Virus record (IMG/VR): IMGVR_UViG_3300025018_000105
Length of the DNA: 55,106 nt
DNA from: a virus
Reading direction: 5' to 3' (one strand)
A model generated the notes under the pieces. The model did no database searches, was not told the origin of the DNA, and worked only from the letters and a program-made list of their open reading frames with translations. Position numbers and translations under genes: made by a program. Below, piece by piece: positions 11,986 through 47,137 of this stretch (its first letter is position 1; each line of letters opens with the position of its first letter).

Positions 11986-12341
11986 ATAGCGCACAAGCAG
12001 GACTTATCGGCAAACTCTTCGCTGGTGTGGTCGTATGGCTGATTGCCTTCGTGACCGGTTTTCTGAAAACGGCCTATCAAGCTTACGTGCTCGGTCAGAT
12101 GTGGGAGTGGTTCATCGTGCCAGCCGGACTTGGGCTGGAAACGCTCGCGTTTAGCGTCCGCGTGGGTGTGGTCTTGATTTTCAACCTCCTGCTGGTAAGT
12201 ATTGGCGCTCTGATCTCGATCAATTCCAGCAAAGAAAGCACCAATGCGATCGGCGTTGTCTTTACTGTTCAGATCATCGTAGTCATCGTCGTCACGATGG
12301 CGTGGATTGGTGCGGCTATCTGGGCGTGGCTTCTGTTTTGA
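11982..12341 (+). CDS. 3-TM membrane protein
   Basis: Hydrophobic helices, GGAGG RBS. Confidence 0.7.
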   Translation: MNSAQAGLIGKLFAGVVVWLIAFVTGFLKTAYQAYVLGQMWEWFIVPAGLGLETLAFSVRVGVVLIFNLLLVSIGALISINSSKESTNAIGVVFTVQIIVVIVVTMAWIGAAIWAWLLF

Positions 12342-13327
12342 TGATCTATAAACCAGCCAAGCAGATCGTTCGCATCCGGCACGGATCACACCTCTACGGC
12401 ACCAACACACCGTCCTCGGACCTCGATTACAAGGGAGTTTTTCTCCCTTCCGGCCGGGACATCGTGCTCGGCCGGGTGCCCAAGGTGATTGATCGTGGCA
12501 CCGGAGACGACACGCGAAAGAACACTGTGGACGACATCGACGATCAGTCCTATCCCTTGCAAAAGTTCTTCGATATGCTGGTCAAGGGTGACACCACCGC
12601 GACCGAAATCCTGTTCGCATCCGACGACGCGATCGAACTCATCACGCCCGAGTGGGAATACGTCCGCGAACAAGCGCCCGGATTCATCAACCGCGAGTGT
12701 AAAGGCTTCGTGGGCTACTGTCGGCAGCAAGCCAACAAGTATGGCATCAAAGGCTCCCGCATGGCGGCCTGTAAGGGCATTGTCGATCTGCTGGCCAAAG
12801 GGATGGAAGAGCTTGGAGGTAAGACCAAGCTGGGCGAACTTGACCCGGTTCTGGACGCCTTTTGTGGGATGCACGAGTTCTCCGAACTTGTGCCGATCAT
12901 GTCGCACGGTCAACCGATCATGCATCTTAGTGTGGTCAACCGTAGGTGTGGTTACACGACGACGATCAAGGATGCCCACGCAGTCTATGCCCGCATCTAC
13001 GAGAACTATGGCGAGCGCGCCCGTATGGCGATGACCAACGAAGGCGTGGACTGGAAGGCGATGAGCCACGCCATTCGTGTTTCTCGACAAGCGTTGGAGC
13101 TTTTGGCTACTGGCCGCATCACGTTTCCTCGCCCTGACGCCGAAGAGCTTCTGGCCATCAAGCTGGGTAAGTTCCCATTTTCGGAAGTTGGTCGCACGCT
13201 CGAAGAATTGGTCGAGAAGGTCGAAGCGGCTGCCGAAATATCCACGCTGCCAGAGGAGTCCGATCAAGACGCCATTGATCGGCTCGTTATCTACCTGTAT
13301 GATAGTCAATTGAGACACACTTCATGA
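12341..13327 (+). CDS. Pol-beta superfamily nucleotidyltransferase
   Basis: HGSHLYGTNTPSSDLDYKG motif; DWKAMSHAIR. Confidence 0.85.
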   Translation: MIYKPAKQIVRIRHGSHLYGTNTPSSDLDYKGVFLPSGRDIVLGRVPKVIDRGTGDDTRKNTVDDIDDQSYPLQKFFDMLVKGDTTATEILFASDDAIELITPEWEYVREQAPGFINRECKGFVGYCRQQANKYGIKGSRMAACKGIVDLLAKGMEELGGKTKLGELDPVLDAFCGMHEFSELVPIMSHGQPIMHLSVVNRRCGYTTTIKDAHAVYARIYENYGERARMAMTNEGVDWKAMSHAIRVSRQALELLATGRITFPRPDAEELLAIKLGKFPFSEVGRTLEELVEKVEAAAEISTLPEESDQDAIDRLVIYLYDSQLRHTS

Positions 13328-34056: not shown

Positions 34057-35298
34057 TCAGCCCTTCACGTTGAGGATTTGACGAAGACGGTGAACGACAT
34101 CGACCAGATCATCCTGAGCGTCCATCACAGCACCGATCGGCTTGTAAGCAGCCGGGCTTTCGTCGATCACATCAGCATCCAGTCGAGCCTCGATGCCCTG
34201 CATCGCTTCGCGGTGCTGGTCGAGCGTAATCATCTTCTTGGCCTTGACACGACTCATCACACGGCCAGCGCCGTGGCTGCACGAGTGAAAAGCTTGGGGG
34301 TTGCCCTTACCACGCACGATGAAGCTTCCGGTGCCCATGGAGCCCGGAATGATGCCCAGCGTGCCCTCACGCGCCTGCACAGCGCCCTTACGGGTCACCC
34401 AGACGTTCTCACCATAGTGGTTCTCACGCGTGACGTAATTGTGGTGGCATTCAACAGCGGCCGTCTCCACGAGGTGAGGTGGGAGCGTCTGACGCATCAC
34501 ACGCAGCACGGCTTCGAGCATCACGCGGCGATTGGCCAACGCGAAATCCTGCGCCCAGCCCACGGCGTTGACGTAATCGTCATAGACTTCCGTGTGCTCC
34601 ACGAGGTAACTCAGATCGGAGTCCGGGAGATAGGCGGCGATATGGTAGCGCTCCATCTCGCGCTTCGCCTGCTCGATGAAATAGCTTCCGATCGAGTTAC
34701 CAATACCACGCGACCCCGAGTGCAGCATGACCCACACACGGTCTTCTTCATCGAGACAGATTTCGATGAAGTGGTTGCCGGTGCCGAGCGTCCCCATGTG
34801 ATGCGACGGATCGCGGCGCTGTTCGATCTTCGGGTGCTTTTCGATAATGGCGCTGTAGCGCTCATACAATCCCTTAAATGCCTCTTCGGCATCACGCGTC
34901 GGCGTGGTGTGCGAACCGGGGTCAGCACCCCGACGGATTTGATCCATCGAGCCGCGCCCGTGCGGGACCGCAGCCTCGATCATGCCGCGAATATGCGACA
35001 GGCTGTCCGGGAAATCGTTTGAGGTGAGTGTGGTCCGAGCGGCCATCATTCCGCATCCGATGTCAACCCCAACAGCAGCAGGAATGATGGCACCCTTGGT
35101 CGCGATGACGGTGCCCACGGTCGAGCCCTTGCCCGCGTGAGCATCCGGCATCACAGCGACATGCTTGTGGATAAACGGCATCCGGGCCATGTTCTCAATC
35201 TGGGAAACGGCCTCATCTTCGAAGGGGTAGCCTTCCGGCTCCCACATCTTGATCAACTTCCTGCGCCCGAAAGCGTCTTCGACTTGATGGACTCGCAC
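34057..35298 (-). CDS. rtcB: RNA 3'-phosphate/5'-OH ligase RtcB
   Basis: MPDAHAGKG, VGVDIGCG, GTLGTGNHF, HSGSRG, HHNY, PGSMG, SHGAGR, DESPAAYK. Confidence 0.96.
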   Translation of the reverse strand: MRVHQVEDAFGRRKLIKMWEPEGYPFEDEAVSQIENMARMPFIHKHVAVMPDAHAGKGSTVGTVIATKGAIIPAAVGVDIGCGMMAARTTLTSNDFPDSLSHIRGMIEAAVPHGRGSMDQIRRGADPGSHTTPTRDAEEAFKGLYERYSAIIEKHPKIEQRRDPSHHMGTLGTGNHFIEICLDEEDRVWVMLHSGSRGIGNSIGSYFIEQAKREMERYHIAAYLPDSDLSYLVEHTEVYDDYVNAVGWAQDFALANRRVMLEAVLRVMRQTLPPHLVETAAVECHHNYVTRENHYGENVWVTRKGAVQAREGTLGIIPGSMGTGSFIVRGKGNPQAFHSCSHGAGRVMSRVKAKKMITLDQHREAMQGIEARLDADVIDESPAAYKPIGAVMDAQDDLVDVVHRLRQILNVKG

Positions 35299-38555: not shown

Positions 38556-38995
38556 GGAAGGCCTTCAACTTTGTGGGCGGTCACCGGGCCACCAGTTGCT
38601 TTGTCATGCCGAGAAGCGGCCATCACGGCTTCTTCGGCAGTGGCTCCGTGAGCCATAGCGCCCATCGCGATGAGAGCGCCTGATCCGATTGCGGTGTAAT
38701 CGGCGTGAACAGGGACAAGGTATCCGCTGTCAAACTCGTGTGCGAGACCGTTGGGAGCGACGATCAGTGCGGCAAACTTGTCTTGGTTATCGAGAAGCTG
38801 TTCTGGGACTTCATTTGGGTCACAACCAGCCCGAACCCACTCTTCGAGAATTGGTCGAACCCATGTGACTCCGGCCATCGCAACCAGATAGTCCCCACAC
38901 CGCTCGATCTTGTCACGTTCCCCATTTGTGATTGTATTGTAGGCAATCAGCGTGTCTGCGGCCAACACGCCGGATCGATAAGCGATGGTAGTCAT
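38546..38995 (-). CDS. Ntn-hydrolase (HslV/proteasome beta-like) protein
   Basis: MTTIAY..LAADT, AIGSG, D..TGG. Confidence 0.75.
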   Translation of the reverse strand: MTTIAYRSGVLAADTLIAYNTITNGERDKIERCGDYLVAMAGVTWVRPILEEWVRAGCDPNEVPEQLLDNQDKFAALIVAPNGLAHEFDSGYLVPVHADYTAIGSGALIAMGAMAHGATAEEAVMAASRHDKATGGPVTAHKVEGLPCT

Positions 38996-39129
38996 GTAAG
39001 GTCCTTGTCGGGAAAGGCGCTTATATTGTTACCGAAATGTGCCCTTGATGTCAAGCTAAAATTGCGGTTGTCAGGTCGTTGTATCCGCAGAAGTCCATGA
39101 CAGCCCACCTTGTTCATCAACCAGAAAGT

Positions 39130-39168
39130 AAAGACCCGCCTCGACGCTTTTCAGCGGAGGCGGGCCTG
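39130..39168 (-). terminator. intrinsic terminator ending the RNA island
   Basis: CCCGCCTC/GAGGCGGG stem plus T-rich tail on - strand. Confidence 0.7.
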
Positions 39169-39169
39169 T

Positions 39170-39680
39170 GCGTCTCGGATCATCGAAAGCGGAGACAAAC
39201 GTATCTCCGAGACGCGGTGACTGGCGGGCTTGCCGGGCCTGTCTTGCCCTCACTCACACCTTCATCGCCAATCGGTTCTCCCCGCTTAGGCTCTGGTTTA
39301 AGCTAGTCTGCAATCAGACAACTACCCGATAATTGGTCCCCGGACGAGGATTCGAACCTCGATACTACTGTAGAAGAGCAACCTTAGGGACGAACAGAAA
39401 CTTCCCTTATACGCTGTCTCTTCAAGAGCATCAGCACCACAAGCAGAGGTCGATTTAGCCGTTAAACTACCTTCTGTCTGTTCTGGCTTTACGCCACAGA
39501 AGGCTAAACCTCTATACCCGGCTGACCGGTGTTAGACGATAATTACTATCTTCATCAGCCCTGACCAATCTCCACGCACCATAGGCCGTTTCCATGGTCG
39601 GCTACCTTTGACCCGCTTCCACGATTTTTCGCCCGTCGGCTAGATCAGGTCTGACGAAGAGAGTGATTCGCTTCGTTGGA
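39170..39680 (-). ncRNA. large structured RNA candidate (GOLLD-like) with an embedded partial tRNA
   Basis: Own promoter (39712) and terminator, no good ORF, many hairpins, anticodon arm/T-arm/CCA at about 39334-39385. Confidence 0.5.
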
Positions 39681-39724
39681 TTGCTGATAGGACAATTTGT
39701 CTGTCCTGTCAACATCTAATTTCA

Positions 39725-39950
39725 ATCCCGGTGGTAGGCTGCTGCTTGCCGGGCCTCACGCGTATTGTCGGCTCCTACCTTCAACACCGTCGTCTTTGTG
39801 GCTTCCGACGGTGTAGCGCATCCAATAGTTGCCACGCGCTCCAACTTGGCGGACCCCAATTGCAAGCAATCTCGTCGCCTCACACTCAACCGGTAGCGAT
39901 CCGGCCTTATTGTATGACACTCGCGCATACTCGTAGGGGGTGCAGGGGCC
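39725..39950 (-). ncRNA. second structured RNA candidate, paralogous to the 3' part of 39170-39680
   Basis: Shared TGAAGGT and AGGCCCGGCAAGC motifs with a covarying helix. Confidence 0.45.
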
Positions 39951-39960
39951 ATAAAACTGA

Positions 39961-40310
39961 GTGGCCCGTCCTGTTGCTACGTGGAGCCATACGCCACCTA
40001 CGGAGTTGATCGCCGCAGGAATTTTGTCGCTTACGCGGCGAGGCGAACCTCATCACGGGCGACGACAACAGCGTTGTCGTTGACAGTTACGTCGTTGACC
40101 TGTCAAAGTCGGTCATGCTTGATCGCGTTCTCATTTCATCGGGCCAATCGATCCTAATTCGCCCCCATCAAGAACAGCCAGAACGTGGTTTTACCATTCG
40201 CTCTCGTGTAACAGCGTCCGGACGCCGGTTCCCGCTGGCTGCTCATGGTGGAGGCGGCGGGCTCTGCCCCCGCGTCTTGACCAAAATCAAATCGATCGAA
40301 TTACGATCAT
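39961..40310 (-). ncRNA. ssrA: circularly permuted two-piece tmRNA (alphaproteobacterial type)
   Basis: Acceptor piece ends CGCCTCCACCA at 40246; hairpin IVS; coding piece starts GGGGGCG at 40166 (G3:U70); tag ORF 40084-40031 VNDNAVVVARDEVRLAA*. Confidence 0.9.
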
Positions 40311-40365
40311 GTGATAATCATGTCAGATTGATTCGCGTATGTCAAGCAAAAAATGCTGACAACTC

Positions 40366-40443
40366 TGGTGCGGGAGGAGGGACTTGAACCCTCAGCGTGG
40401 GGGATTTTAAGTCCCCTGCGTTTACCAATTTCGCCACCCCCGC
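40366..40443 (-). tRNA. tRNA-Leu(TAA), short variable loop
   Basis: Cloverleaf, CCA encoded. Confidence 0.9.
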
Positions 40444-40560
40444 TCAGAGGAAGATGAGGAGGAGCCCGATGCCCAGAACAAACTTGACGACACCCCCTGC
40501 GAGTTCCCTGCCCCCGATCAGGTAAAGGCAGAATAAGAAAAACAGACCTCCAAGCAACAT
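40444..40560 (-). CDS. 38-aa membrane peptide
   Basis: AAGGAG RBS, own TTGACA promoter at about 40620. Confidence 0.6.
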   Translation of the reverse strand: MLLGGLFFLFCLYLIGGRELAGGVVKFVLGIGLLLIFL

Positions 40561-40628
40561 GACTTTCTCCTTTGATTCGTTTCGGTGTTATAACCGTAAC
40601 AACATTGGAAAACTTGTCAAGTGGAAAA

Positions 40629-40704
40629 TGGAGCCGGAGGTCGGATTCGAACCGACGACCTTCGCTTTACAAGAGCGCTGCTCTGGCCTCTGAGCTACAC
40701 CGGC
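40629..40704 (-). tRNA. tRNA-Thr(TGT)
   Basis: Cloverleaf, CCA. Confidence 0.9.
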
Positions 40705-40714
40705 ATATTTTATT

Positions 40715-40788
40715 TGGCAGGGGCGTAAGGAATCGAACCCTAATTACCGGGATTGGAAGCCGGGGTCTTACCATTAGACGACACCCCC
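40715..40788 (-). tRNA. tRNA-Trp(CCA)
   Basis: Cloverleaf, G73, C31-C39 mismatch. Confidence 0.8.
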
Positions 40789-40803
40789 ACAGTGTCTTTG
40801 ATT

Positions 40804-40878
40804 TGGAGCGACGGGCCGGAATCTCACCAGCGTCCTCTTAGTTTGCAGCTAAGTGTGATAATACTCCACCACCGTCGC
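40804..40878 (-). tRNA. tRNA-Cys(GCA)
   Basis: Cloverleaf, U73, atypical D and T loops. Confidence 0.8.
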
Positions 40879-40885
40879 ATCTATT

Positions 40886-40973
40886 TGGAGGAGCGTGGAG
40901 GCATCGAACCTCTGACCCATAAAGGTCACTACGGTTTAGCAAACCGCTTGGGGAGCCAACCCCAGCACACTCC
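40886..40973 (-). tRNA. tRNA-Ser(GCT)
   Basis: Long variable arm, CCA. Confidence 0.85.
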
Positions 40974-40976
40974 AAA

Positions 40977-41120
40977 TCACTTACACTTTCCGGCGATGAA
41001 CGCCTTGTTGATCTCGGCCGCTACATTGAACGGCTCTCCTGTTACCTTGCCTACCAGAATGAACGTGCCTTCCTTGCCGTCCACTGGAACTGCTCTCAGG
41101 CGGTCGATGGGTGCTGTCAT
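40977..41120 (-). CDS. small hypothetical protein (47 aa)
   Basis: ORF filling a tRNA spacer. Confidence 0.45.
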   Translation of the reverse strand: MTAPIDRLRAVPVDGKEGTFILVGKVTGEPFNVAAEINKAFIAGKCK

Positions 41121-41136
41121 CACTCGCCTACTTTTC

Positions 41137-41210
41137 TGGATGCCCCTGTTGGGATCGAACCAACATCTTCGCCTTCAAAGGGCGCTGACTTACCATTAGC
41201 CGAAGGGGCA
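41137..41210 (-). tRNA. tRNA-Gln(TTG)
   Basis: Cloverleaf, U1:A72. Confidence 0.9.
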
Positions 41211-41261
41211 TTAGGTTGTCGATCCGGGGTTGTGTTATCTGTCATTTAATCGTCTCCTAAC

Positions 41262-41338
41262 TGGATGCACGGAAAGGATTCGAACCTTTAACTTTCTGCG
41301 CTCAGAACGCAGCGGCCGGACCTACCAGCTACCGTGCA
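41262..41338 (-). tRNA. tRNA-Gln(CTG)
   Basis: Cloverleaf, U1:A72. Confidence 0.85.
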
Positions 41339-41347
41339 GTGAAACCA

Positions 41348-41421
41348 TGGTAGTCCCGTCTGGAATTGAACCAGCCTCTACCCCTTATGAGGGGGCAGCT
41401 TTACCACTAAGCTACAGGACC
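41348..41421 (-). tRNA. tRNA with CAT anticodon (Ile2 or elongator Met)
   Basis: Cloverleaf; identity not resolvable by eye. Confidence 0.85.
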
Positions 41422-41438
41422 ACAAGAATCACGGATTA

Positions 41439-41514
41439 GGGGTGACCGGTGGGTTTCGAACCCACTATATCTGGCACCACAAGCCAGCGCATCAACCAAT
41501 TCTGCCTCGGCCAC
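41439..41514 (-). tRNA. tRNA-His(GTG)
   Basis: Cloverleaf, C73, no encoded CCA or G-1. Confidence 0.85.
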
Positions 41515-41596
41515 ACCTAATCCGTGAACCTATATATTTGAACGTATATTCTTTATGATATATATGTCAAGACATATATCAACTTTGATATAACTT

Positions 41597-41670
41597 CGGA
41601 GCCGGATAAGAGAATCGAACTCTTGTCTTCGCGTTACGACGGCGTTGCTCTACCATTGAGCTAACCCGGC
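41597..41670 (-). tRNA. tRNA-Thr(CGT)
   Basis: Cloverleaf, weak anticodon stem. Confidence 0.75.
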
Positions 41671-41679
41671 ATTTAACTC

Positions 41680-41762
41680 TGGTCCGCGACCCCGGACTTG
41701 AACCGGGAAGCCTAAGCCACGCCCTCTCAAGACGCTGCGTTTACCAATTTCGCCAGTCGCGG
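41680..41762 (-). tRNA. tRNA-Leu(GAG)
   Basis: Cloverleaf, variable arm. Confidence 0.9.
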
Positions 41763-41770
41763 ATCGTGGT

Positions 41771-41848
41771 TGGTGCGCCTCCCCGGACTCGAACCGGGAA
41801 AACTCTCGGACCTGAGCCGAGCGACTTTACCAATTTGCCCAGAGGCAC
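41771..41848 (-). tRNA. tRNA-Leu(CAG), short variable loop
   Basis: Cloverleaf, CCA. Confidence 0.9.
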
Positions 41849-41867
41849 AAACCACAGTAATTTATTT

Positions 41868-41953
41868 TGGTGGGCAGAGAAGGAATTTGCACCTTCACAG
41901 CGGTCAAACGTCCGATTTACAGTCGGGTGGGCTCACTCATGCCCAGCCTGCCC
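41868..41953 (-). tRNA. tRNA-Tyr(GTA)
   Basis: Variable arm, atypical T loop. Confidence 0.85.
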
Positions 41954-41966
41954 TTAAAGTTGAAAC

Positions 41967-42003
41967 AAAAAAAAAGCGCCAGACCCTAGAAGGGACTGAC
42001 GCG
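41967..42003 (-). terminator. attenuator terminator of tRNA operon 3
   Basis: GCGTCAG-TCCC/GGG-TCTGGCGC hairpin plus T9. Confidence 0.8.
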
Positions 42004-42014
42004 GCGGAAAGCGC

Positions 42015-42101
42015 TGGAGGAGGGTGGAGGAATTGAACCCCTAACCTGTCAAGGTTAGCCCGGTTTTCGAGACCGGTTTGCACACCCGTGCGCCACCCTC
42101 C
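42015..42101 (-). tRNA. tRNA-Ser(CGA)
   Basis: Long variable arm, CCA. Confidence 0.9.
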
Positions 42102-42132
42102 TTACGTGGAAGTGGCGCGTCAGAACCACTCC

Positions 42133-42216
42133 CTAGAGGGATGAACTAGTGCTATACCAATGTTGGCATAGCAAAGCCTGCGTAAGCGGCTTCAAGAGGT
42201 GGGTCTGTTTGTTCAT
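42133..42216 (-). CDS. leader peptide of tRNA operon 3, MNKQTHLLKPLTQALLCQHWYSTSSSL
   Basis: ATG at the predicted TSS (leaderless); 21 of 26 residues match downstream tRNAs. Confidence 0.8.
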   Translation of the reverse strand: MNKQTHLLKPLTQALLCQHWYSTSSSL

Positions 42217-42223
42217 GAAGGAG

Positions 42224-42252
42224 AGTATATGAATATTCGAAGCGAAAGTCAA
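42224..42252 (-). promoter_or_regulatory. sigma70 promoter of tRNA operon 3
   Basis: TTGACT-17-TATACT. Confidence 0.85.
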
Positions 42253-42550
42253 TCAAAAAATGCACTAAGTGCAATTTTATTTTTGCGGCCTTTACCAGCA
42301 AACGCACCAAGGCCCAGCTAGCGTTTCTGGCCCGCCCCGACGATCATACGGGGCATGGCAAAGACAAACAGACTAGCTTCGAATGATGATTCGTTCGCTT
42401 GAGAAAGCGAAACCCCAGAGCGGCGACAACCGATCTGGGGTCTCTTTCACGCGCCCCTTTGTTCGAGAAAGGAGGGTGATGTCGTGCGCATTACTCGCGC
42501 TACGCAGCGTTATTACTTGACCCCGATATAGGAGTCCAGCGAAAATCGCA

Positions 42551-42675
42551 TCAATCGGTGAGCCTGAGGGTATCCACGTTCATCACGGCCAACACGGAAA
42601 GAAAGAAGTCTGCCGTGAAGGACCCTCGGCTCACTTTATTGCGTAGCGCGGCCTCCGAGAAGCCTTCTCCAGCCT
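42551..42675 (-). pseudogene. DUF6471-like 3' fragment
   Basis: SEAALRNKVSRGSFTADFFLSVLAVMNV; 5' end missing. Confidence 0.65.
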
Positions 42676-42678
42676 GCG

Positions 42679-42894
42679 CCAATCGGCCAACGCATCCACG
42701 CCAAGAGGCGCGAACTCGGCTTGTCGCAAGAGGGATTGGCCAACGAGGCGGGGCTGGATCGCAGCTATGTAGGTCGCATCGAGCGCGGCGAGCACAACCT
42801 GACATTTGTCTCGTTGGTCAGGCTGTGTCGGGCGATGGGGTGTGACGTGGCTGCGCTGACCGCTGGATTGCCGGTCGTTTCTGACAAAACCTGA
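42679..42894 (+). pseudogene. XRE-family HTH regulator lacking its native start
   Basis: RRELGLSQEGLANEAGLDRSYVGRIERGEHN; upstream stop at 42616 and no ATG. Confidence 0.75.
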
Positions 42895-43298
42895 GCAAAA
42901 ACTTGACAAGCATAACAAATTCTATTAAACTTCGCAGCGCTGAATTGCGAAGTTCGCATGGGCTTCTCCAACAATTCGAAATCCGGCAAAAATTGCCGAG
43001 AAAGGGCCACGCCGTGGGCTACGTTGATAAAGAACTCTTGGGCGCTCAGGACGCCTTCCCCCATCCCGCCGAGCGCCCAGCCCTAAGAGTCCGTTCGCCG
43101 CAGCAACGGTCTCGAAGCAATCCGAATGTGGTGAGCATTCAGGTGTGGTATGATGGCAGATGGCTCACTGAGGAGGAGGTGGAGGAATCTCTTGCCAAGG
43201 GTGCTGCTCGTGCTGCCCTTGAGCGAGAGCAAGGGATACTCCCTGATCATTCCAACTAGACGCACTCTTGGTGCGTTTGCTGGCAAAGACCGTATTTT

Positions 43299-43370
43299 TG
43301 GAGCCCCGGAGCGGAATCGAACCGCTGCCTGTGAGCTTAGAAGGCTCAGAGCCCGATCCACGGCCGGGGC
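43299..43370 (-). tRNA. tRNA-Arg(TCT), degenerate D-arm
   Basis: Acceptor, anticodon and T arms intact. Confidence 0.8.
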
Positions 43371-43374
43371 AAGC

Positions 43375-43431
43375 TGGTGGATCGGACCGGATTTGAACCG
43401 ATCGAGCGCTTCTCCGGACCACCGGCGACCC
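43375..43431 (-). ncRNA. 57-nt tRNA-like remnant (acceptor + T-arm + CCA, no anticodon arm)
   Basis: GGGTCG/CGATCC-ACCA, TTCAAAT loop. Confidence 0.6.
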
Positions 43432-43437
43432 ATAAAC

Positions 43438-43513
43438 TGGTGGTGACGGATGGGATTGAACCACCGACGCAGAACTTTTCAGGCTCCCGCTCTACCAACT
43501 GAGCTACGTCACC
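43438..43513 (-). tRNA. tRNA-Phe(GAA)
   Basis: Cloverleaf. Confidence 0.92.
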
Positions 43514-43514
43514 A

Positions 43515-43586
43515 TGGAGCCGCGTGGTGGACTCGAACCACCCCATTGACCTTCGGACGGTCACGCCCGTTCCAGCCGGACGCGGC
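43515..43586 (-). tRNA. tRNA-Arg(CCG), degenerate D-arm
   Basis: Acceptor, anticodon and T arms intact. Confidence 0.8.
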
Positions 43587-43599
43587 ACCTTATTAACTC

Positions 43600-43682
43600 T
43601 GGAGCCCTAGGAGGGATTCGAACCCCCATTTTCAACTCCAATTACGGGTCCGACGTTCGTAGCGTCGGTCGGTTACTAGGGC
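43600..43682 (-). tRNA. tRNA-Arg(ACG), D-armless with a 22-nt variable region
   Basis: 7-bp acceptor, 6-bp anticodon stem, canonical T-arm. Confidence 0.75.
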
Positions 43683-43700
43683 ATCAACTCGTTCATCACT

Positions 43701-43777
43701 TGGTAGCGCCAACGGGATTCAAACCCGCGTCCGAAGGGTGAAAGCCAACGTGTCCTAGATCGCTAGACGACGGCGCT
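43701..43777 (-). tRNA. tRNA-Glu(TTC)
   Basis: Cloverleaf, imperfect anticodon stem. Confidence 0.75.
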
Positions 43778-43785
43778 TCAACAAG

Positions 43786-43862
43786 TGGTGCCCCGTGCGA
43801 GGTTCGAACTCGCGTCCTCCCGGCTGAGAACCGGGCGTCCTTGACCGCTAGACCAACGGGGC
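43786..43862 (-). tRNA. tRNA-Glu(CTC)
   Basis: Cloverleaf. Confidence 0.92.
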
Positions 43863-43869
43863 GGTAAAC

Positions 43870-43944
43870 TGGCGGACACGACGGATTATGATACCGCGAC
43901 CTCCCGCGTGACAGGCGGGTGCTCTTCCTCTGAGCTACGTGTCC
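43870..43944 (-). tRNA. tRNA-Asp(GTC)
   Basis: Cloverleaf, atypical T loop. Confidence 0.85.
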
Positions 43945-43955
43945 TTGATAATTGA

Positions 43956-44031
43956 TGGAGCGGACGGACGGGCTTGAACCGACGGCCTTCTGGGTGGAAA
44001 CCAGACGCTCTACCAACTGAGCTACATCCGC
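43956..44031 (-). tRNA. tRNA-Gly(TCC)
   Basis: Cloverleaf. Confidence 0.92.
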
Positions 44032-44081
44032 ATCATCAATCATCACTATTAACTTGTAAACGCACGGCACTATTAACTTGT

Positions 44082-44257
44082 AGTCGGCTTACGCCAGCAC
44101 CCCGACGAGGCTTGTCGGACTACGATCCCGACACCTGACCCCTTGCCACCATGGAACGGCCGATTCGAACGGCCCTCGGTTTACTGTGCTTACACTTACA
44201 CCATCCTCTCTTTCACCCGACGCGTTCGGGAGGACGAGGCGCTGGCATAAGCCGACT
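44082..44257 (-). ncRNA. 176-nt structured RNA with tRNA-like D and T arms
   Basis: 23-bp closing stem; GGCCG-TTCGAAT-CGGCC T-arm. Confidence 0.65.
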
Positions 44258-44265
44258 GTTGTGAC

Positions 44266-44340
44266 TGGAGCGGGCGACGGGAATCGAACCCGTGTCTTCA
44301 CGTTGGCAACGTGGTGCTCTACCGATTGAGCTACACCTGC
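44266..44340 (-). tRNA. tRNA-Gly(GCC)
   Basis: Cloverleaf. Confidence 0.92.
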
Positions 44341-44355
44341 ATCCTGTCAAAATTT

Positions 44356-44432
44356 TGGTAGACCGGGTGAGGTTCGAACTCACGACGACGCGGATTAAAA
44401 GCCCGCCGCTCTACCCACTGAGCTACCGGTCC
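44356..44432 (-). tRNA. tRNA-Lys(TTT)
   Basis: Cloverleaf. Confidence 0.92.
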
Positions 44433-44450
44433 ACATGAACCGGGAACACG

Positions 44451-44484
44451 AAAAACGCCCCATCGGGCTTGCCGATAGAGCGTT
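44451..44484 (-). terminator. attenuator terminator of tRNA operon 2
   Basis: AACGCTCTATCGG/CCGATGGGCGTT hairpin plus T run. Confidence 0.75.
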
Positions 44485-44504
44485 CCTAAGAAGCTGATCT
44501 GTTT

Positions 44505-44580
44505 TGGAGGATGAGGTGAGGTTTGAACTCACGGCCTTCGGAGTAAGAATCCGACGCTCTACCCACTGAGCTACACATCC
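44505..44580 (-). tRNA. tRNA-Lys(CTT)
   Basis: Cloverleaf, flanked by an inverted repeat. Confidence 0.9.
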
Positions 44581-44618
44581 GTCAAAACAGATCAGTAGCC
44601 GAGGCACGCACTACCGAT

Positions 44619-44681
44619 CTACGAGGTAAAACCTCGTTCATCGCCTTCCCGGCGATCTCGTTTGGTGCGTTCAAAGGTCAT
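44619..44681 (-). CDS. leader peptide of tRNA operon 2, MTFERTKRDRREGDERGFTS
   Basis: AAGGA/GGA RBS; 15 of 19 residues match downstream tRNAs. Confidence 0.8.
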   Translation of the reverse strand: MTFERTKRDRREGDERGFTS

Positions 44682-44737
44682 AGCGTTTTCCAATTCCTTA
44701 AACTATTGTGCGGACCATTCCGCGTCAAGATGAGGGG

Positions 44738-44766
44738 ATGATATGCGATTCGGCTGGTGATGTCAA
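44738..44766 (-). promoter_or_regulatory. sigma70 promoter of tRNA operon 2
   Basis: TTGACA-17-TATCAT with CGAATCG in the spacer. Confidence 0.85.
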
Positions 44767-44958
44767 CAACTTTTTTCCATTCACCGCAATTTTTCTTACA
44801 TCGGGTAACGGCGGCCGGTCCTCAGTGATCGATCGTGCCTCACCGGTGTAAGGCGATCTGAGGCCGCGCCGCCGCCCCTTCTCGACGACAACCCAGCAAA
44901 GGGACGGCTCGCGAAGTCCGCTGCTATGCTCGGCTCATCTAGCCCCATCTAAGGGGAT

Positions 44959-45033
44959 TGGTGCTTCGTGGAGGTTTCGAACTTCCGGCCTTCCCCGAGT
45001 CAAGGGGACGCTCTACCACTGAGCTAACGAAGC
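44959..45033 (-). tRNA. tRNA-Val(GAC)
   Basis: Cloverleaf. Confidence 0.9.
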
Positions 45034-45335
45034 GTTGTTCCATCATTCTTGCGAAGCGTATCCTCGAATCCATCGCGGTAAGCTTCCCATGCCTTGTCCT
45101 TATCCACGACAGGTGTGGCAAGCAAGGCTTCTCGTCGCGTTGCAACCTCTTCGTCGAGATCGGCCTGAGCGTCTACCACGCCGCGATCGTAATCTTCCTT
45201 GTAGAGCCCATCGTAGCCCCGCGACCAGAACTGTCGGACGCCATGCCACGAGTTATCGGGCTTCGACGGCGGCGTCTCATAGCCGGAGCGGAGGCCGCCA
45301 CGACGATAGGACAATTTGAGAAGTTGTTGGCCCAT
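45024..45335 (-). CDS. hypothetical protein inside the tRNA cluster
   Basis: AAGGAG RBS; YDRGVVDA and AYRDGFED repeats. Confidence 0.65.
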   Translation of the reverse strand: MGQQLLKLSYRRGGLRSGYETPPSKPDNSWHGVRQFWSRGYDGLYKEDYDRGVVDAQADLDEEVATRREALLATPVVDKDKAWEAYRDGFEDTLRKNDGTTLR

Positions 45336-45352
45336 GAAAACTCCTTGTATAC

Positions 45353-45437
45353 TGGCTGGGTAGGTAGGGATCGAACCTACGCTCTTTCGAGGTCACCGGT
45401 TAACAGCCGGGCACAATTACCACTCTGTCACTACCCA
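45353..45437 (-). tRNA. tRNA-Asn(GTT) with a long variable arm
   Basis: Cloverleaf, G73, CTC-GAAA-GAG extra arm. Confidence 0.85.
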
Positions 45438-45474
45438 ATAGTATACATGAGTTGACCGGTCAAGTCAACGAAAC

Positions 45475-45550
45475 TGGTGGAGAAGGACGGGATCGAACCG
45501 ACGGCCTCCTGCTTGCAAGGCAGGCGCTCTCCCAACTGAGCTACATCCCC
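45475..45550 (-). tRNA. tRNA-Ala(TGC)
   Basis: Cloverleaf, G3:U70. Confidence 0.93.
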
Positions 45551-45582
45551 ATTGACCAAGGCTGTTCAGGTTGGTCGGAAAC

Positions 45583-45671
45583 TGGTAGTGAGAACTCAAC
45601 CTACTAAGCTAACTGGGAGTGCGAGTCGTCAACTCATCCGCCAGCGCAGGTTCGGTGCTCTTGTTCTCACT
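45583..45671 (-). ncRNA. ACCA-ending non-tRNA RNA candidate
   Basis: AGTGAGAAC/GTTCTCACT stem plus ACCA. Confidence 0.45.
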
Positions 45672-45722
45672 CTTACGAGGAGACTAACCCTCGCGTTTCA
45701 GGCATTGTTTCAGCCATCTATC

Positions 45723-45801
45723 TGGTCCACAGGGTAGGGTTCGAACCTACGCAATGACGCCGATTATCGGTCGGCCGCTCTACCAACTGAGCTACCCGTG
45801 G
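45723..45801 (-). tRNA. tRNA-Ile(GAT)
   Basis: Cloverleaf. Confidence 0.9.
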
Positions 45802-45811
45802 ATGTTAACTT

Positions 45812-45887
45812 TGGTAGGCGATGACGGGATCGAACCGCCGCTGACGGGACGTGTAAGGACCCCGCTCTACCGCTGAGCTAATCGCCT
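45812..45887 (-). tRNA. tRNA-Val(TAC)
   Basis: Cloverleaf. Confidence 0.88.
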
Positions 45888-45934
45888 ATGAACTTCTTTG
45901 TCCCTTCCGAGTTGACGGAAGTCGGGGACGAAAC

Positions 45935-46004
45935 TGGTAGCAGTGGGTGGAGGTGCGCCACCGACCTAAGGGTTATGAGCCCCCGGTCAAACTACTTCAC
46001 TGCT
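45935..46004 (-). tRNA. atypical tRNA-Met(CAT), initiator-like anticodon stem
   Basis: GGG/CCC anticodon stem, A1:U72, degenerate D-arm and T-loop. Confidence 0.7.
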
Positions 46005-46005
46005 A

Positions 46006-46084
46006 TGGTCAGGCGAGCAGGATTTGAACCTGCGATCCCCTCCGTCCGAGGGAGGTGAGGACGGCCAAACTCCTCTACCGCCTG
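46006..46084 (-). tRNA. tRNA-Pro(CGG)
   Basis: Cloverleaf. Confidence 0.9.
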
Positions 46085-46092
46085 ATGTAAAC

Positions 46093-46169
46093 TGGTCTGG
46101 AGTGGAGGGCTCGAACCTCCGATCCTCCCGGTCCCAAACCGGGCGCTCTACCGACTGAGCTAACCCCAG
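46093..46169 (-). tRNA. tRNA-Pro(TGG)
   Basis: Cloverleaf. Confidence 0.92.
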
Positions 46170-46205
46170 AAAAGGAAAAGGGCCTGTCACTTTCGTGAAG
46201 GCCCT
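46170..46205 (-). terminator. attenuator terminator of tRNA operon 1
   Basis: GGGCCT-TCAC-GAAA-GTGA-C-AGGCCC plus TTTTCCTTTT. Confidence 0.8.
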
Positions 46206-46234
46206 CTCCGGTAACTCGTGCTGTGGTGCGGACC

Positions 46235-46327
46235 TTAGTCCACATAGCCTTCCACATAAGCACGCGCCACCGCTGGGACCATAATGGCCACCGGTGCGGG
46301 GTTATTCATGGCGAATGCGTTGAACAT
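46235..46327 (-). CDS. leader peptide of tRNA operon 1, MFNAFAMNNPAPVAIMVPAVARAYVEGYVD
   Basis: 16 consecutive residues drawn only from A/M/N/P/V/I, the downstream tRNA set. Confidence 0.8.
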   Translation of the reverse strand: MFNAFAMNNPAPVAIMVPAVARAYVEGYVD

Positions 46328-46379
46328 GAAAAACTCTTTAATCCTCTAGTGTGCAGACTATTCCGCGTGTTGAGCCCTG

Positions 46380-46408
46380 ATGATAGCCGAATCAGCGTGG
46401 CTTGTCAA
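46380..46408 (-). promoter_or_regulatory. sigma70 promoter of tRNA operon 1
   Basis: TTGACA-17-TATCAT with TGATTCG in the spacer. Confidence 0.85.
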
Positions 46409-46578
46409 TAAAAAATTGCATCTAACGCAAAAATAATCCGGAGCCGGTAGGGAGAATCGAACTCAAGGATCGCAAAAACTGGGTGATCAATTCCCAGCCA
46501 AGTATCCTTCACGGACGGCCGCCTTGTCTATCAGGGGCGGCTTGGTAGCTCTGCCCTCCCTGATTCGCAAGCCCTAAA

Positions 46579-47055
46579 TCAGGCTGCCTTCTTCTTGTCT
46601 GCGAGCGGCGCTTCGAGTTCGACCTTGGCCTTGGCCTCCTCTTCCTTCGAAGCGCGCCAGACGCTCACGCCCGCAGTGGTCTTGCCATCGATCTCGACCT
46701 CATCCGAGCGGGCCCAGAACTTGCGGAGTTCCTTTCCGTCACGGCCGTTCCAGCGCTTGCGGTTTGCAGCGAGCACCCGCTGGGGATCGTCGCTGTCCGG
46801 GATAAAGAAGCTGGGGCCGATGCGTTCGCCGTTGACATCCTTCGAGTAGTCGAGCTTCGAGAACGGATACTTCTCCGGCTTGGCCGTGCGCCCCGAGAAG
46901 GTCGGCGTGACCACAGCCTTCATCACGATCGGCACGTCAGCGGTGCCACCCGAGTCGATCTGTTGGCCCTGCTTGTCCACATACGGGTCGGCACGGCGGG
47001 CAGGCGTCTTCTTGGCAGTTCCGGCTTTGCGGGTGTTCTTGTTCTGGGTAGTCAT
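46579..47055 (-). CDS. basic hypothetical protein, possibly DNA-binding
   Basis: KYPF..SFFIP..GVSVWR motif; AGGAGG RBS. Confidence 0.75.
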   Translation of the reverse strand: MTTQNKNTRKAGTAKKTPARRADPYVDKQGQQIDSGGTADVPIVMKAVVTPTFSGRTAKPEKYPFSKLDYSKDVNGERIGPSFFIPDSDDPQRVLAANRKRWNGRDGKELRKFWARSDEVEIDGKTTAGVSVWRASKEEEAKAKVELEAPLADKKKAA

Positions 47056-47137
47056 ATTTCCTCCTGTGTTGTTGGTGATTCGTTTTCGATGCTGGTTGTT
47101 TGGCTCAAACGGAAACCAAAGTCAACTCCTTTTTTCA

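Follow-up and report, generated by a model that had tools for sequence, protein, structure and literature searches.

We propose that the second operon (operon 2) of a phage tRNA array is probably governed by a leader-peptide-type transcription attenuator, whether the tRNA enclosed in the switch relays the decision or is passive. Through this attenuator, ten downstream tRNA genes are likely turned on by slow reading of Lys, Gly, Asp, Glu, Arg or Phe codons, and the phage likely makes the gated tRNAs only when ribosomes run short of them. The full version of the proposal, in which the fold of the enclosed tRNA would relay the decision to the terminator, draws on folding models, and we give it about an even chance of being right. 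A broader reading is more tentative, with the tRNA gene as a working part of the switch whose misfold would act as a memory setting termination ~135 nt later, and with three sensors through which the phage would poll all 20 tRNA pools and respond, one operon at a time, to host defences that cut tRNA. If the switch is real, phage tRNA supply would be under codon-specific feedback, which bears on why phages carry large tRNA arrays and when these are expressed.

The DNA analysed here (the window) is a stretch of 55,106 nt from IMG/VR record IMGVR_UViG_3300025018_000105. Its minus strand carries 29 tRNA genes called by ARAGORN between 40366 and 46169, and the best blastn matches to this array are in Erythrobacter phages vB_EliS-L02 and XM05 and Sphingobium phage Lacusarx, indicating by sequence similarity that the window derives from a Lacusarx/EliS-L02-like phage. 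It would be a large phage of sphingomonad-type hosts. Genes encoding RtcB, a tyrosine recombinase, a SNF2 helicase and NAMPT lie near the array. Aquifer metagenome runs hold near-identical DNA; one contig matches 44420-44800 (run X4) and another 43743-45543 (run X3), both without difference, and either run may belong to the source campaign. As far as these contigs show, the locus is not an assembly artefact. Contigs from an RNA run (X24) cover the leader, tRNA and terminator, but contigs say nothing about transcript ends, strand or level.

Promoters at 46408, 44766 and 42252, each with a short ORF and a terminator behind it, divide the array into three operons. Their tRNA sets are P/M/V/I/A/N for operon 1, K/G/D/E/R/F for operon 2 and S/Y/L/T/H/Q/C/W for operon 3, and between them they cover all 20 amino acids. 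In the window, the Met and Arg(ACG) genes were read from the sequence; ARAGORN calls both in relatives, and an extra tRNA-Met in operon 3 was left out of the operon-3 set. The Met(CAT)-like gene lies at about 45930-46005 and, uncalled by ARAGORN in the window, is called at the same position in four related loci (L001, L002, L028 and L071). The Arg(ACG)-like gene (43601-43686) has acceptor, anticodon and T arms and no D arm; it was missed by both ARAGORN and Rfam, and the Arg(ACG) genes of relatives are normal.

The promoter, leader ORF, antiterminator, clamp, tRNA-Lys(CUU) and terminator all lie where the initial annotation placed them, its six pairing motifs were all located on the minus strand at the places claimed for them, and the operon-2 cassette reads as follows.

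44738-44766, minus strand: σ70-type promoter of operon 2, TTGACA-17-TATCAT, 11 of 12 matches, with the start site probably near 44731
44710-44723, minus strand: 5' hairpin GCGGA-ATGG-TCCGC; a related hairpin stands at the start of operon 1 (direct repeat)
44689-44699, minus strand: candidate ribosome-binding purines seen in the sequence, AAGGA and GGA, respectively 13 and 7 nt upstream of the ATG, weak or of non-optimal spacing
44619-44681, minus strand: leader ORF of 20 codons, translated as MTFERTKRDRREGDERGFTS and a stop, its frame intact in 12 of 12 loci despite frame-keeping indels
44622-44656, minus strand: two hairpins within the leader ORF (−16.9 kcal/mol, z −4.3), candidate polymerase pause sites
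44606-44616, minus strand: strand A, the antiterminator 5' strand CGGTAGTGCGT, which begins 2 nt past the stop and pairs with D and also with B
44583-44599, minus strand: strand B, with three mutually exclusive partners (A, tRNA nt 1-11 and clamp strand C)
44505-44580, minus strand: tRNA-Lys(CUU), enclosed by the switch, with the best tRNA score in the window (70.9 bits)
44494-44504, minus strand: strand C, the clamp 3' strand AAACAGATCAG, which pairs with B and extends the acceptor stem
44451-44485, minus strand: intrinsic terminator, by folding and conservation, with 5' arm D (44485-44472), loop, 3' arm E and U5 (44455-44451)
43299-44432, minus strand: the gated tRNA genes Lys(UUU), Gly(GCC), Gly(UCC), Asp, Glu(CUC), Glu(UUC), Arg(ACG)-like, Arg(CCG), Phe and Arg(UCU), called by ARAGORN, with Arg(UCU) at a relaxed threshold and the Arg(ACG)-like gene read from the sequence

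The partner of strand A in the antiterminator, ACGCTCTATCG (44483-44473), sits within arm D, and the A:D helix comprises ten pairs, one of them G-U, and one U-U mismatch. The clamp joins CTGATCTGTTT (44595-44585) to AAACAGATCAG (44504-44494) on the minus strand and lengthens the acceptor stem by up to 13 bp, and the alternative A:B hairpin joins AGATCGGTAG (44620-44611) to CTACTGATCT (44598-44589) on the same strand; the part of the tRNA-Lys(CUU) 5' strand that B could capture is 44580-44570. As read from the sequence, this tRNA has a U6-U67 mismatch and U73. The terminator (−21.3 kcal/mol, z −4.8, with none of 200 shuffles as good) is followed by only five U and is absent from the list produced by a simple terminator pattern scan. 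The A:B hairpin (−16.7 kcal/mol, z −4.4) beat 200 of 200 shuffles, and the RNA past the stop folds as a nested A:D helix, clamp and cloverleaf (−60.6, z −5.2, a z score inflated by the tRNA), a structure that is the top inverted repeat of 42200-46600. No Rfam match to a T-box, riboswitch or leader family was found in 38900-47100 up to an E value of 1. A listing of direct repeats of at least 14 nt, such as might form a repressor operator of the Anabaena trn type, contains none over the promoter (44738-44766).

Every element of this cassette is kept in 12 distinct operon-2 loci with cassette identities to the window of 65-75%. These comprise the window, the three named phages (blastn), six loci found by a leader pattern and two found by an operon-3 pattern; no search pattern included strands A-E and, because six of the 12 were found by the leader pattern, conservation of the core peptide is partly circular. 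A TTGAC box lies upstream of the leader, and the stop codon 1-3 nt upstream of A, in all 12. The A:D core is 99.1% paired over nine pairs with two-sided changes at three of them (seven cells), a covariation reached by none of 500 shuffles, and slid controls were 26-57% paired; a tenth A:D pair is weak (7 of 12 loci). The inner clamp shows two-sided changes at five of six pairs, A:B is 98.6% paired with variation that is one-sided only, the terminator is 94.4% paired, and the GCT of B is invariant. The core of the leader ORF hardly varies in its DNA and shows few synonymous changes. In a tree of other tRNAs (a short alignment with missing data), loci with the U-A form of one A:D pair fall to either side of a well-supported branch, indicating that this form arose or was lost more than once. 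Across these loci, compensatory changes accompany the conservation of the leader ORF, codon match, antiterminator, clamp and terminator and, judged by sequence, the anatomy is real, conserved and selected for alternative pairings.

Pattern matches with an adjacent tRNA-Lys numbered four of six among viral sequences, one of them a duplicate of Lacusarx, and three of 43 in metagenomes; 42 pattern matches were dropped as chance. The leader pattern had no match in bacterial genomes, a recombinase search returned no related loci, an operon-1 pattern found 15 viral loci of which none had tRNAs, and plasmids gave matches to single tRNAs only.

In the mechanism that we propose, host polymerase would start at the σ70 promoter and a ribosome would read the 20-codon leader. 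With the ribosome stalled at Phe18 or earlier (ON), A would be free and would pair first with B; the tRNA would then fold, C would take B to form the clamp, and the freed A would pair with D, blocking the terminator. The helices of this state come from conservation, and we infer the order of events. With the ribosome at the stop (OFF), A is predicted to be covered as B and the 5' end of the tRNA leave the polymerase, B to invade tRNA nt 1-11 so that the tRNA and clamp come too late, and D:E to win even with the ribosome gone.

Folding models at the decision length, in which the RNA ends after D is out and before E is out, bear on where the ribosome must be. Without a ribosome, or with the A site no further along than stop-3, A:D exceeded 0.5 in all 12 loci; the number fell to nine at stop-2 and to zero at stop-1 and at the stop. 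The loss of A:D on masking A is built into the model, and the geometry is the informative part. A ribosome with Phe, the last in-set codon, at stop-3 was permissive in 11-12 of the 12 loci with four footprint sizes from +8 to +15; the two codons that end the leader (Thr/Ser, Ser/Leu) come from the set of another operon and lie at or near the masking boundary, depending on the footprint. The initial annotation held that a ribosome at the stop masks the antiterminator and that one stalled earlier frees it. The models bear out this geometry, with A:D lost at the stop or last codon in 12 of 12, but stop-masking by itself leaves a gap in timing, the terminator arm being made ~135 nt past the stop.

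Pairing between A and the ORF was at most 0.17 in 12 of 12 loci at decision length and was seen only in the full-length fold of the window, and an ORF-derived 1:2 pause or protector helix was rejected on this figure. Because A hardly pairs with the ORF, no trp-type 1:2 helix is predicted, and untranslated RNA is predicted to be ON. Equilibrium folding of whole transcripts gave a terminator of at least 0.87 without a ribosome in eight of the 12 loci (the start site was mis-picked for two), and two loci (L028 and L072) were terminated at every ribosome position; mapping of stall sites by such a whole-transcript scan was dropped as too noisy.

The composition of each leader follows the tRNA content of its operon. 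Own-set residues account for 21/29, 15/19 and 21/26 residues of the window leaders of operons 1, 2 and 3, respectively (binomial p of 4e-6, 4e-4 and 2e-7 against a background of 14 window genes), and the last two codons of the operon-2 leader (Thr, Ser) fall outside K/G/D/E/R/F. For 27 leaders from the 12 loci the corresponding counts are 167/231, 177/221 and 152/169, with backgrounds of 0.31, 0.39 and 0.31; the operon-2 count covers 12 leaders, Lacusarx operon 1 was left out, and the other gaps are operons beyond the fetched DNA. Because the 12 loci are related, the p values do not multiply. Only two residues of the operon-1 set occur in all operon-2 leaders taken together, and just one of the 460 short ATG ORFs of the window, presumably the leader itself, equals the leader in KGDERF richness. 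The Lys codon is AAA in 12 of 12 operon-2 leaders, compared with 79 AAA and 297 AAG in the window genes, and this all-AAA usage may be one inherited state. Under standard decoding rules a CUU anticodon does not read AAA. As the leader has no Lys codon other than AAA, the sensor would not be blinded by the enclosed tRNA.

Phages of the phiCbK family group their tRNAs differently from the window operons, and their leaders follow. Leaders of Pro/Thr/Lys/Leu/His/Ala/Ser blocks have 41/44 (phiCbK gp335), 35/38, 36/42 and 38/41 residues in set with a background of 0.40, and those of (Tyr)/Phe/Val/Ile/Gln/(Asn)/Arg blocks have 17/31, 16/29, 18/30 and 19/31; annotated terminators, behind gp335 and ahead of tRNA-Phe, precede the phiCbK tRNA blocks. 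In Mesorhizobium phage Cp1R7A-A1, a leader with 14/23 P/V/I/E residues lies ahead of Pro-like (read from sequence), Val, Ile, Val, Glu and Glu genes, and a second leader (31/42, p 0.10) is not significant. Backgrounds for the phiCbK-family and Mesorhizobium-phage leaders are those of the window's genes. No leader candidate was found in Ruegeria phage RpAliso.

The proposed relay turns on the third partner of strand B, a pairing absent from the initial annotation. In the window, B forms 11 pairs with tRNA nt 1-11 (−11.9 kcal/mol, z −3.9), and this helix is 93.5% paired over the 12 loci; its covariation is not significant (three cells, reached by 50 of 500 shuffles), and two lineage changes also fit B:C. 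With thresholds of −10 kcal/mol or lower and at least six cross pairs, a tRNA-invading hairpin lies ahead of 12/12 switch tRNA-Lys and 7/7 switch tRNA-Ser genes compared with 24 of 242 other tRNAs, seven of these 24 being the next tRNA-Lys(UUU). At full tRNA length, A:B with a folded tRNA dominated when A was free (at least 0.54 in 12/12), and B:tRNA dominated when A was masked (12/12 with a 12-nt mask, 11/12 with 9 nt). With B:tRNA forced and the ribosome gone, the terminator reached at least 0.98 in nine of the 12 loci; with B:tRNA not forced it stayed below 0.35 in nine, and six showed the full flip. In short transcripts with A free, B:tRNA already beat A:B in 11 of 12, and once C was out the clamp replaced B:tRNA in 11 of 12, so any memory would be kinetic only. 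Path barriers, which are heuristic upper bounds that include no pseudoknots or tRNA tertiary structure, were 16-24 kcal/mol from trap to clamp and 1-6 kcal/mol from A:B to clamp, and the barrier from A:B to B:tRNA (7-15 kcal/mol) overlaps the reverse barrier (12-20). In the trapped state before E emerges, A:D still formed, at 0.99 or more in ten of the 12 loci. With the trap, the ribosome would need to cover A only for the first ~50 nt past the stop, which would solve the timing problem.

These models shift three points of the initial annotation, in which the A:B hairpin was a competitor, the tRNA a folded spacer and the first tRNA constitutive. Because A:B converts to the clamp over so low a barrier, it probably belongs to the ON pathway and is not a rival; since B can invade the tRNA 5' end, the hairpin probably protects tRNA folding. 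The tRNA is probably not passive, B pairing with nt 1-11 in 12 of 12 loci, and the first tRNA may therefore be misfolded in the OFF state and need not be constitutive. A capturing hairpin (44420-44445, −13.0 kcal/mol) also precedes the second tRNA, Lys(UUU), in seven of the 12 loci.

The same attenuator could instead operate with the tRNA as a passive, always-folded spacer, tRNA-Lys(CUU) being constitutive and ribosomes that dwell at or re-arrive at the stop masking or melting A when D is made. We regard this as rather unlikely, although all of the helix conservation fits it, equilibrium folding favours the clamp as soon as C has emerged, A:D is lost in 12/12 models when a ribosome occupies the stop or last codon and, according to the available text of PMC3082878, basal read-through at pheL depends on ribosome release at the stop. 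It needs ribosome occupancy ~135 nt of transcription later, and it leaves unexplained both the complementarity of B to the tRNA 5' end (12/12 loci; 7/7 operon-3 loci) and the invariant GCT of B. A general sensor of translation flux or infection timing, opened by any slowdown (antibiotics, ribosome-targeting toxins, host shut-off) with codon identity minor, would agree with untranslated RNA being predicted ON in 12/12 loci and with the two RNA hairpins that also constrain the ORF core. A generic sensor has no need for leader composition to track tRNA content, as it does in three operons and in the differently partitioned operons of phiCbK-family and Mesorhizobium phages, and we consider it improbable.

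Roles in RNA maturation or stability, in which the clamp would be a stem for processing, translation of the leader would control tRNA folding and the terminator would set stoichiometry as a fixed, leaky step, seem distinctly improbable. The acceptor stem extended by up to 13 bp and the short U tract (U5) would suit such roles, and B:tRNA pairing would affect processing directly, but no tRNA separates leader and terminator in operon 1, and A covaries with arm D at three positions, of which terminator-side G-U pairs absorb two, as is expected only if A:D competes with D:E. That the ORF is untranslated or encodes a trans-acting peptide, the codon match being a by-product of GC content and RNA structure, is extremely improbable in our view: the ORF retains its start, frame and stop in 12/12 loci despite several indel patterns and always ends 1-3 nt ahead of A, and the composition match is seen again in 27 leaders and in distant phages, even if leader translation is a prediction and the near-invariant ORF-core DNA has few synonymous changes.

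Putative sister attenuators resembling the one proposed for operon 2 stand at the head of the other two operons.

46175-46408, minus strand: operon-1 sister attenuator, with promoter 46408, leader 46327-46235 (MFNAFAMNNPAPVAIMVPAVARAYVEGYVD) and terminator 46209-46175
41967-42252, minus strand: operon-3 sister attenuator, with promoter 42252, ORF 42216-42133 (MNKQTHLLKPLTQALLCQHWYSTSSSL), CTGACGC 42123-42117, enclosed tRNA-Ser(CGA) 42101-42015 and terminator 42002-41967

In operon 1 the terminator precedes the first tRNA, and the genes are Pro, Met-like, Val, Ile, Ala and Asn. In operon 3 the ATG lies 7 nt past the −10 box in the window (42216-42229) and 7-9 nt past it in 7/7 loci, suggesting that the leader mRNA is probably leaderless; this leader is written with rare codons, such as CTA, TTG, AGT and TCA. 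In pseudoknot-free folding, the operon-3 antiterminator of the window formed almost regardless of ribosome position, that of L071 at many positions and those of the other five loci scarcely at all (D was mislocated for Lacusarx), so that operon 3 shows no clean switching in models of this kind. A structured non-coding stretch lies between the promoter and tRNA-Pro of Lacusarx operon 1 (L002 2610-2920), in which no P/M/V/I/A/N leader was found. Distant-phage leaders have in common a C-terminal DGGT(R)V/F ending before the stop (L006 6652-6750, the L028 operon-1 leader and L004 3211-3342), which by its sequence is probably a conserved structural segment of the operon-1-type switch.

Leader-peptide attenuators with the same logic include trpL, hisL and the multivalent thrL and ilvL, and the E. 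coli pheST (pheM) attenuator provides attenuation feedback on charged-tRNA supply. The pheST attenuator controls a synthetase, senses a single amino acid and has no embedded tRNA, whereas the operon-2 switch gates tRNAs. The cassette has the features of the attenuator class, namely an in-frame conserved ORF between promoter and terminator, matching control codons, an intrinsic terminator and an exclusive antiterminator within ribosome reach, and it differs from the classical class in two features, the lack of an ORF-derived protector and its tRNA targets. As in pheL, according to the available text (PMC3082878), a short leader ORF with control codons precedes a mutually exclusive antiterminator and terminator, and ribosome position sets the outcome. 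In contrast to the trpL/pheL/thrL type, the operon-2 switch is phage-borne, answers to six amino acids, gates tRNA genes and not biosynthetic enzymes or synthetases, and has an antiterminator that spans a whole tRNA; it is also predicted to have no ORF-derived 1:2 protector and to be ON when untranslated. T-box riboswitches, as described in the sources available, likewise tie a choice between terminator and antiterminator to tRNA charging but bind the tRNA in trans with no need for a ribosome, whereas the operon-2 tRNA lies in cis inside the switch.

The Anabaena trn operon (L-array) is, in the accessible text of PMC8421152 and PMC10272220, a tRNA array that is likewise on when translation is impaired; unlike the operon-2 attenuator, it is controlled at initiation by a protein repressor (PMC8421152), and neither "attenuat" nor "leader" occurs in the accessible text of PMC8421152. 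Phage T5 tRNA-Tyr is described as countering retron-Eco7 and its tRNA-Lys as countering PrrC170 (PMC11555353, accessible text), and a phage tRNA is likewise set against the tRNA-cleaving PARIS defence in the accessible text of PMC11464382. Replenishing depleted tRNA is a plausible purpose shared with such anti-defence tRNAs, which a strong promoter drives with no feedback switch described in the accessible text of PMC11555353 ("attenuat" 0, "leader" 0). Neither word occurs in the main text of the Lacusarx (PMC5648845) or phiCbK (PMC3556154) papers, as far as these were accessible, and a full-text search, outside of which lie most subscription papers and supplements, returned among the matches listed no paper on leader-peptide attenuation of tRNA genes or on a tRNA inside an attenuator. 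If real, the operon-2 switch would be, as far as this search shows, the first trp-style attenuation of tRNA genes and would make a tRNA fold the relay of a riboregulator, and the leaders would list the tRNA pools that these phages expect to lose. The cassette is present in cultured phages (Lacusarx, vB_EliS-L02 and XM05), with sister leaders in the Caulobacter phage phiCbK.

Several further features of the array and its surroundings were observed. A structured non-coding insert at 44082-44257, between Gly(GCC) and Gly(UCC), is closed by a 23-nt inverted repeat, contains a T-arm-like hairpin and has no Rfam match. Between operons 2 and 3, inverted repeats of 26 nt (92%; 42286-42311 and 43267-43292) bound a 1-kb insert containing an HTH_3 gene (42721-42894, plus strand), which by sequence looks like a small mobile or invertible cassette; in vB_EliS-L02, Arg(UCU) directly precedes the operon-3 promoter. 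A permuted alphaproteobacterial tmRNA (39960-40349), the RtcB RNA ligase (34057-35298) and an RlaP-family gene (12302-13327) would together supply RNA repair and ribosome rescue next to the array. From the tmRNA to the gene that follows, a region of ~700 nt (39040-39760) has hairpins and tRNA-like ends, lacks any long ORF and has no Rfam match. Long non-coding stretches with an embedded tRNA-like gene also lie ahead of the EliS-L02 and XM05 arrays (L001 2050-3800, L003 6250-7740 and L004 4922-5384), where the Rfam matches are to tRNA only, and Cp1R7A-A1 has a match to GOLLD RNA.
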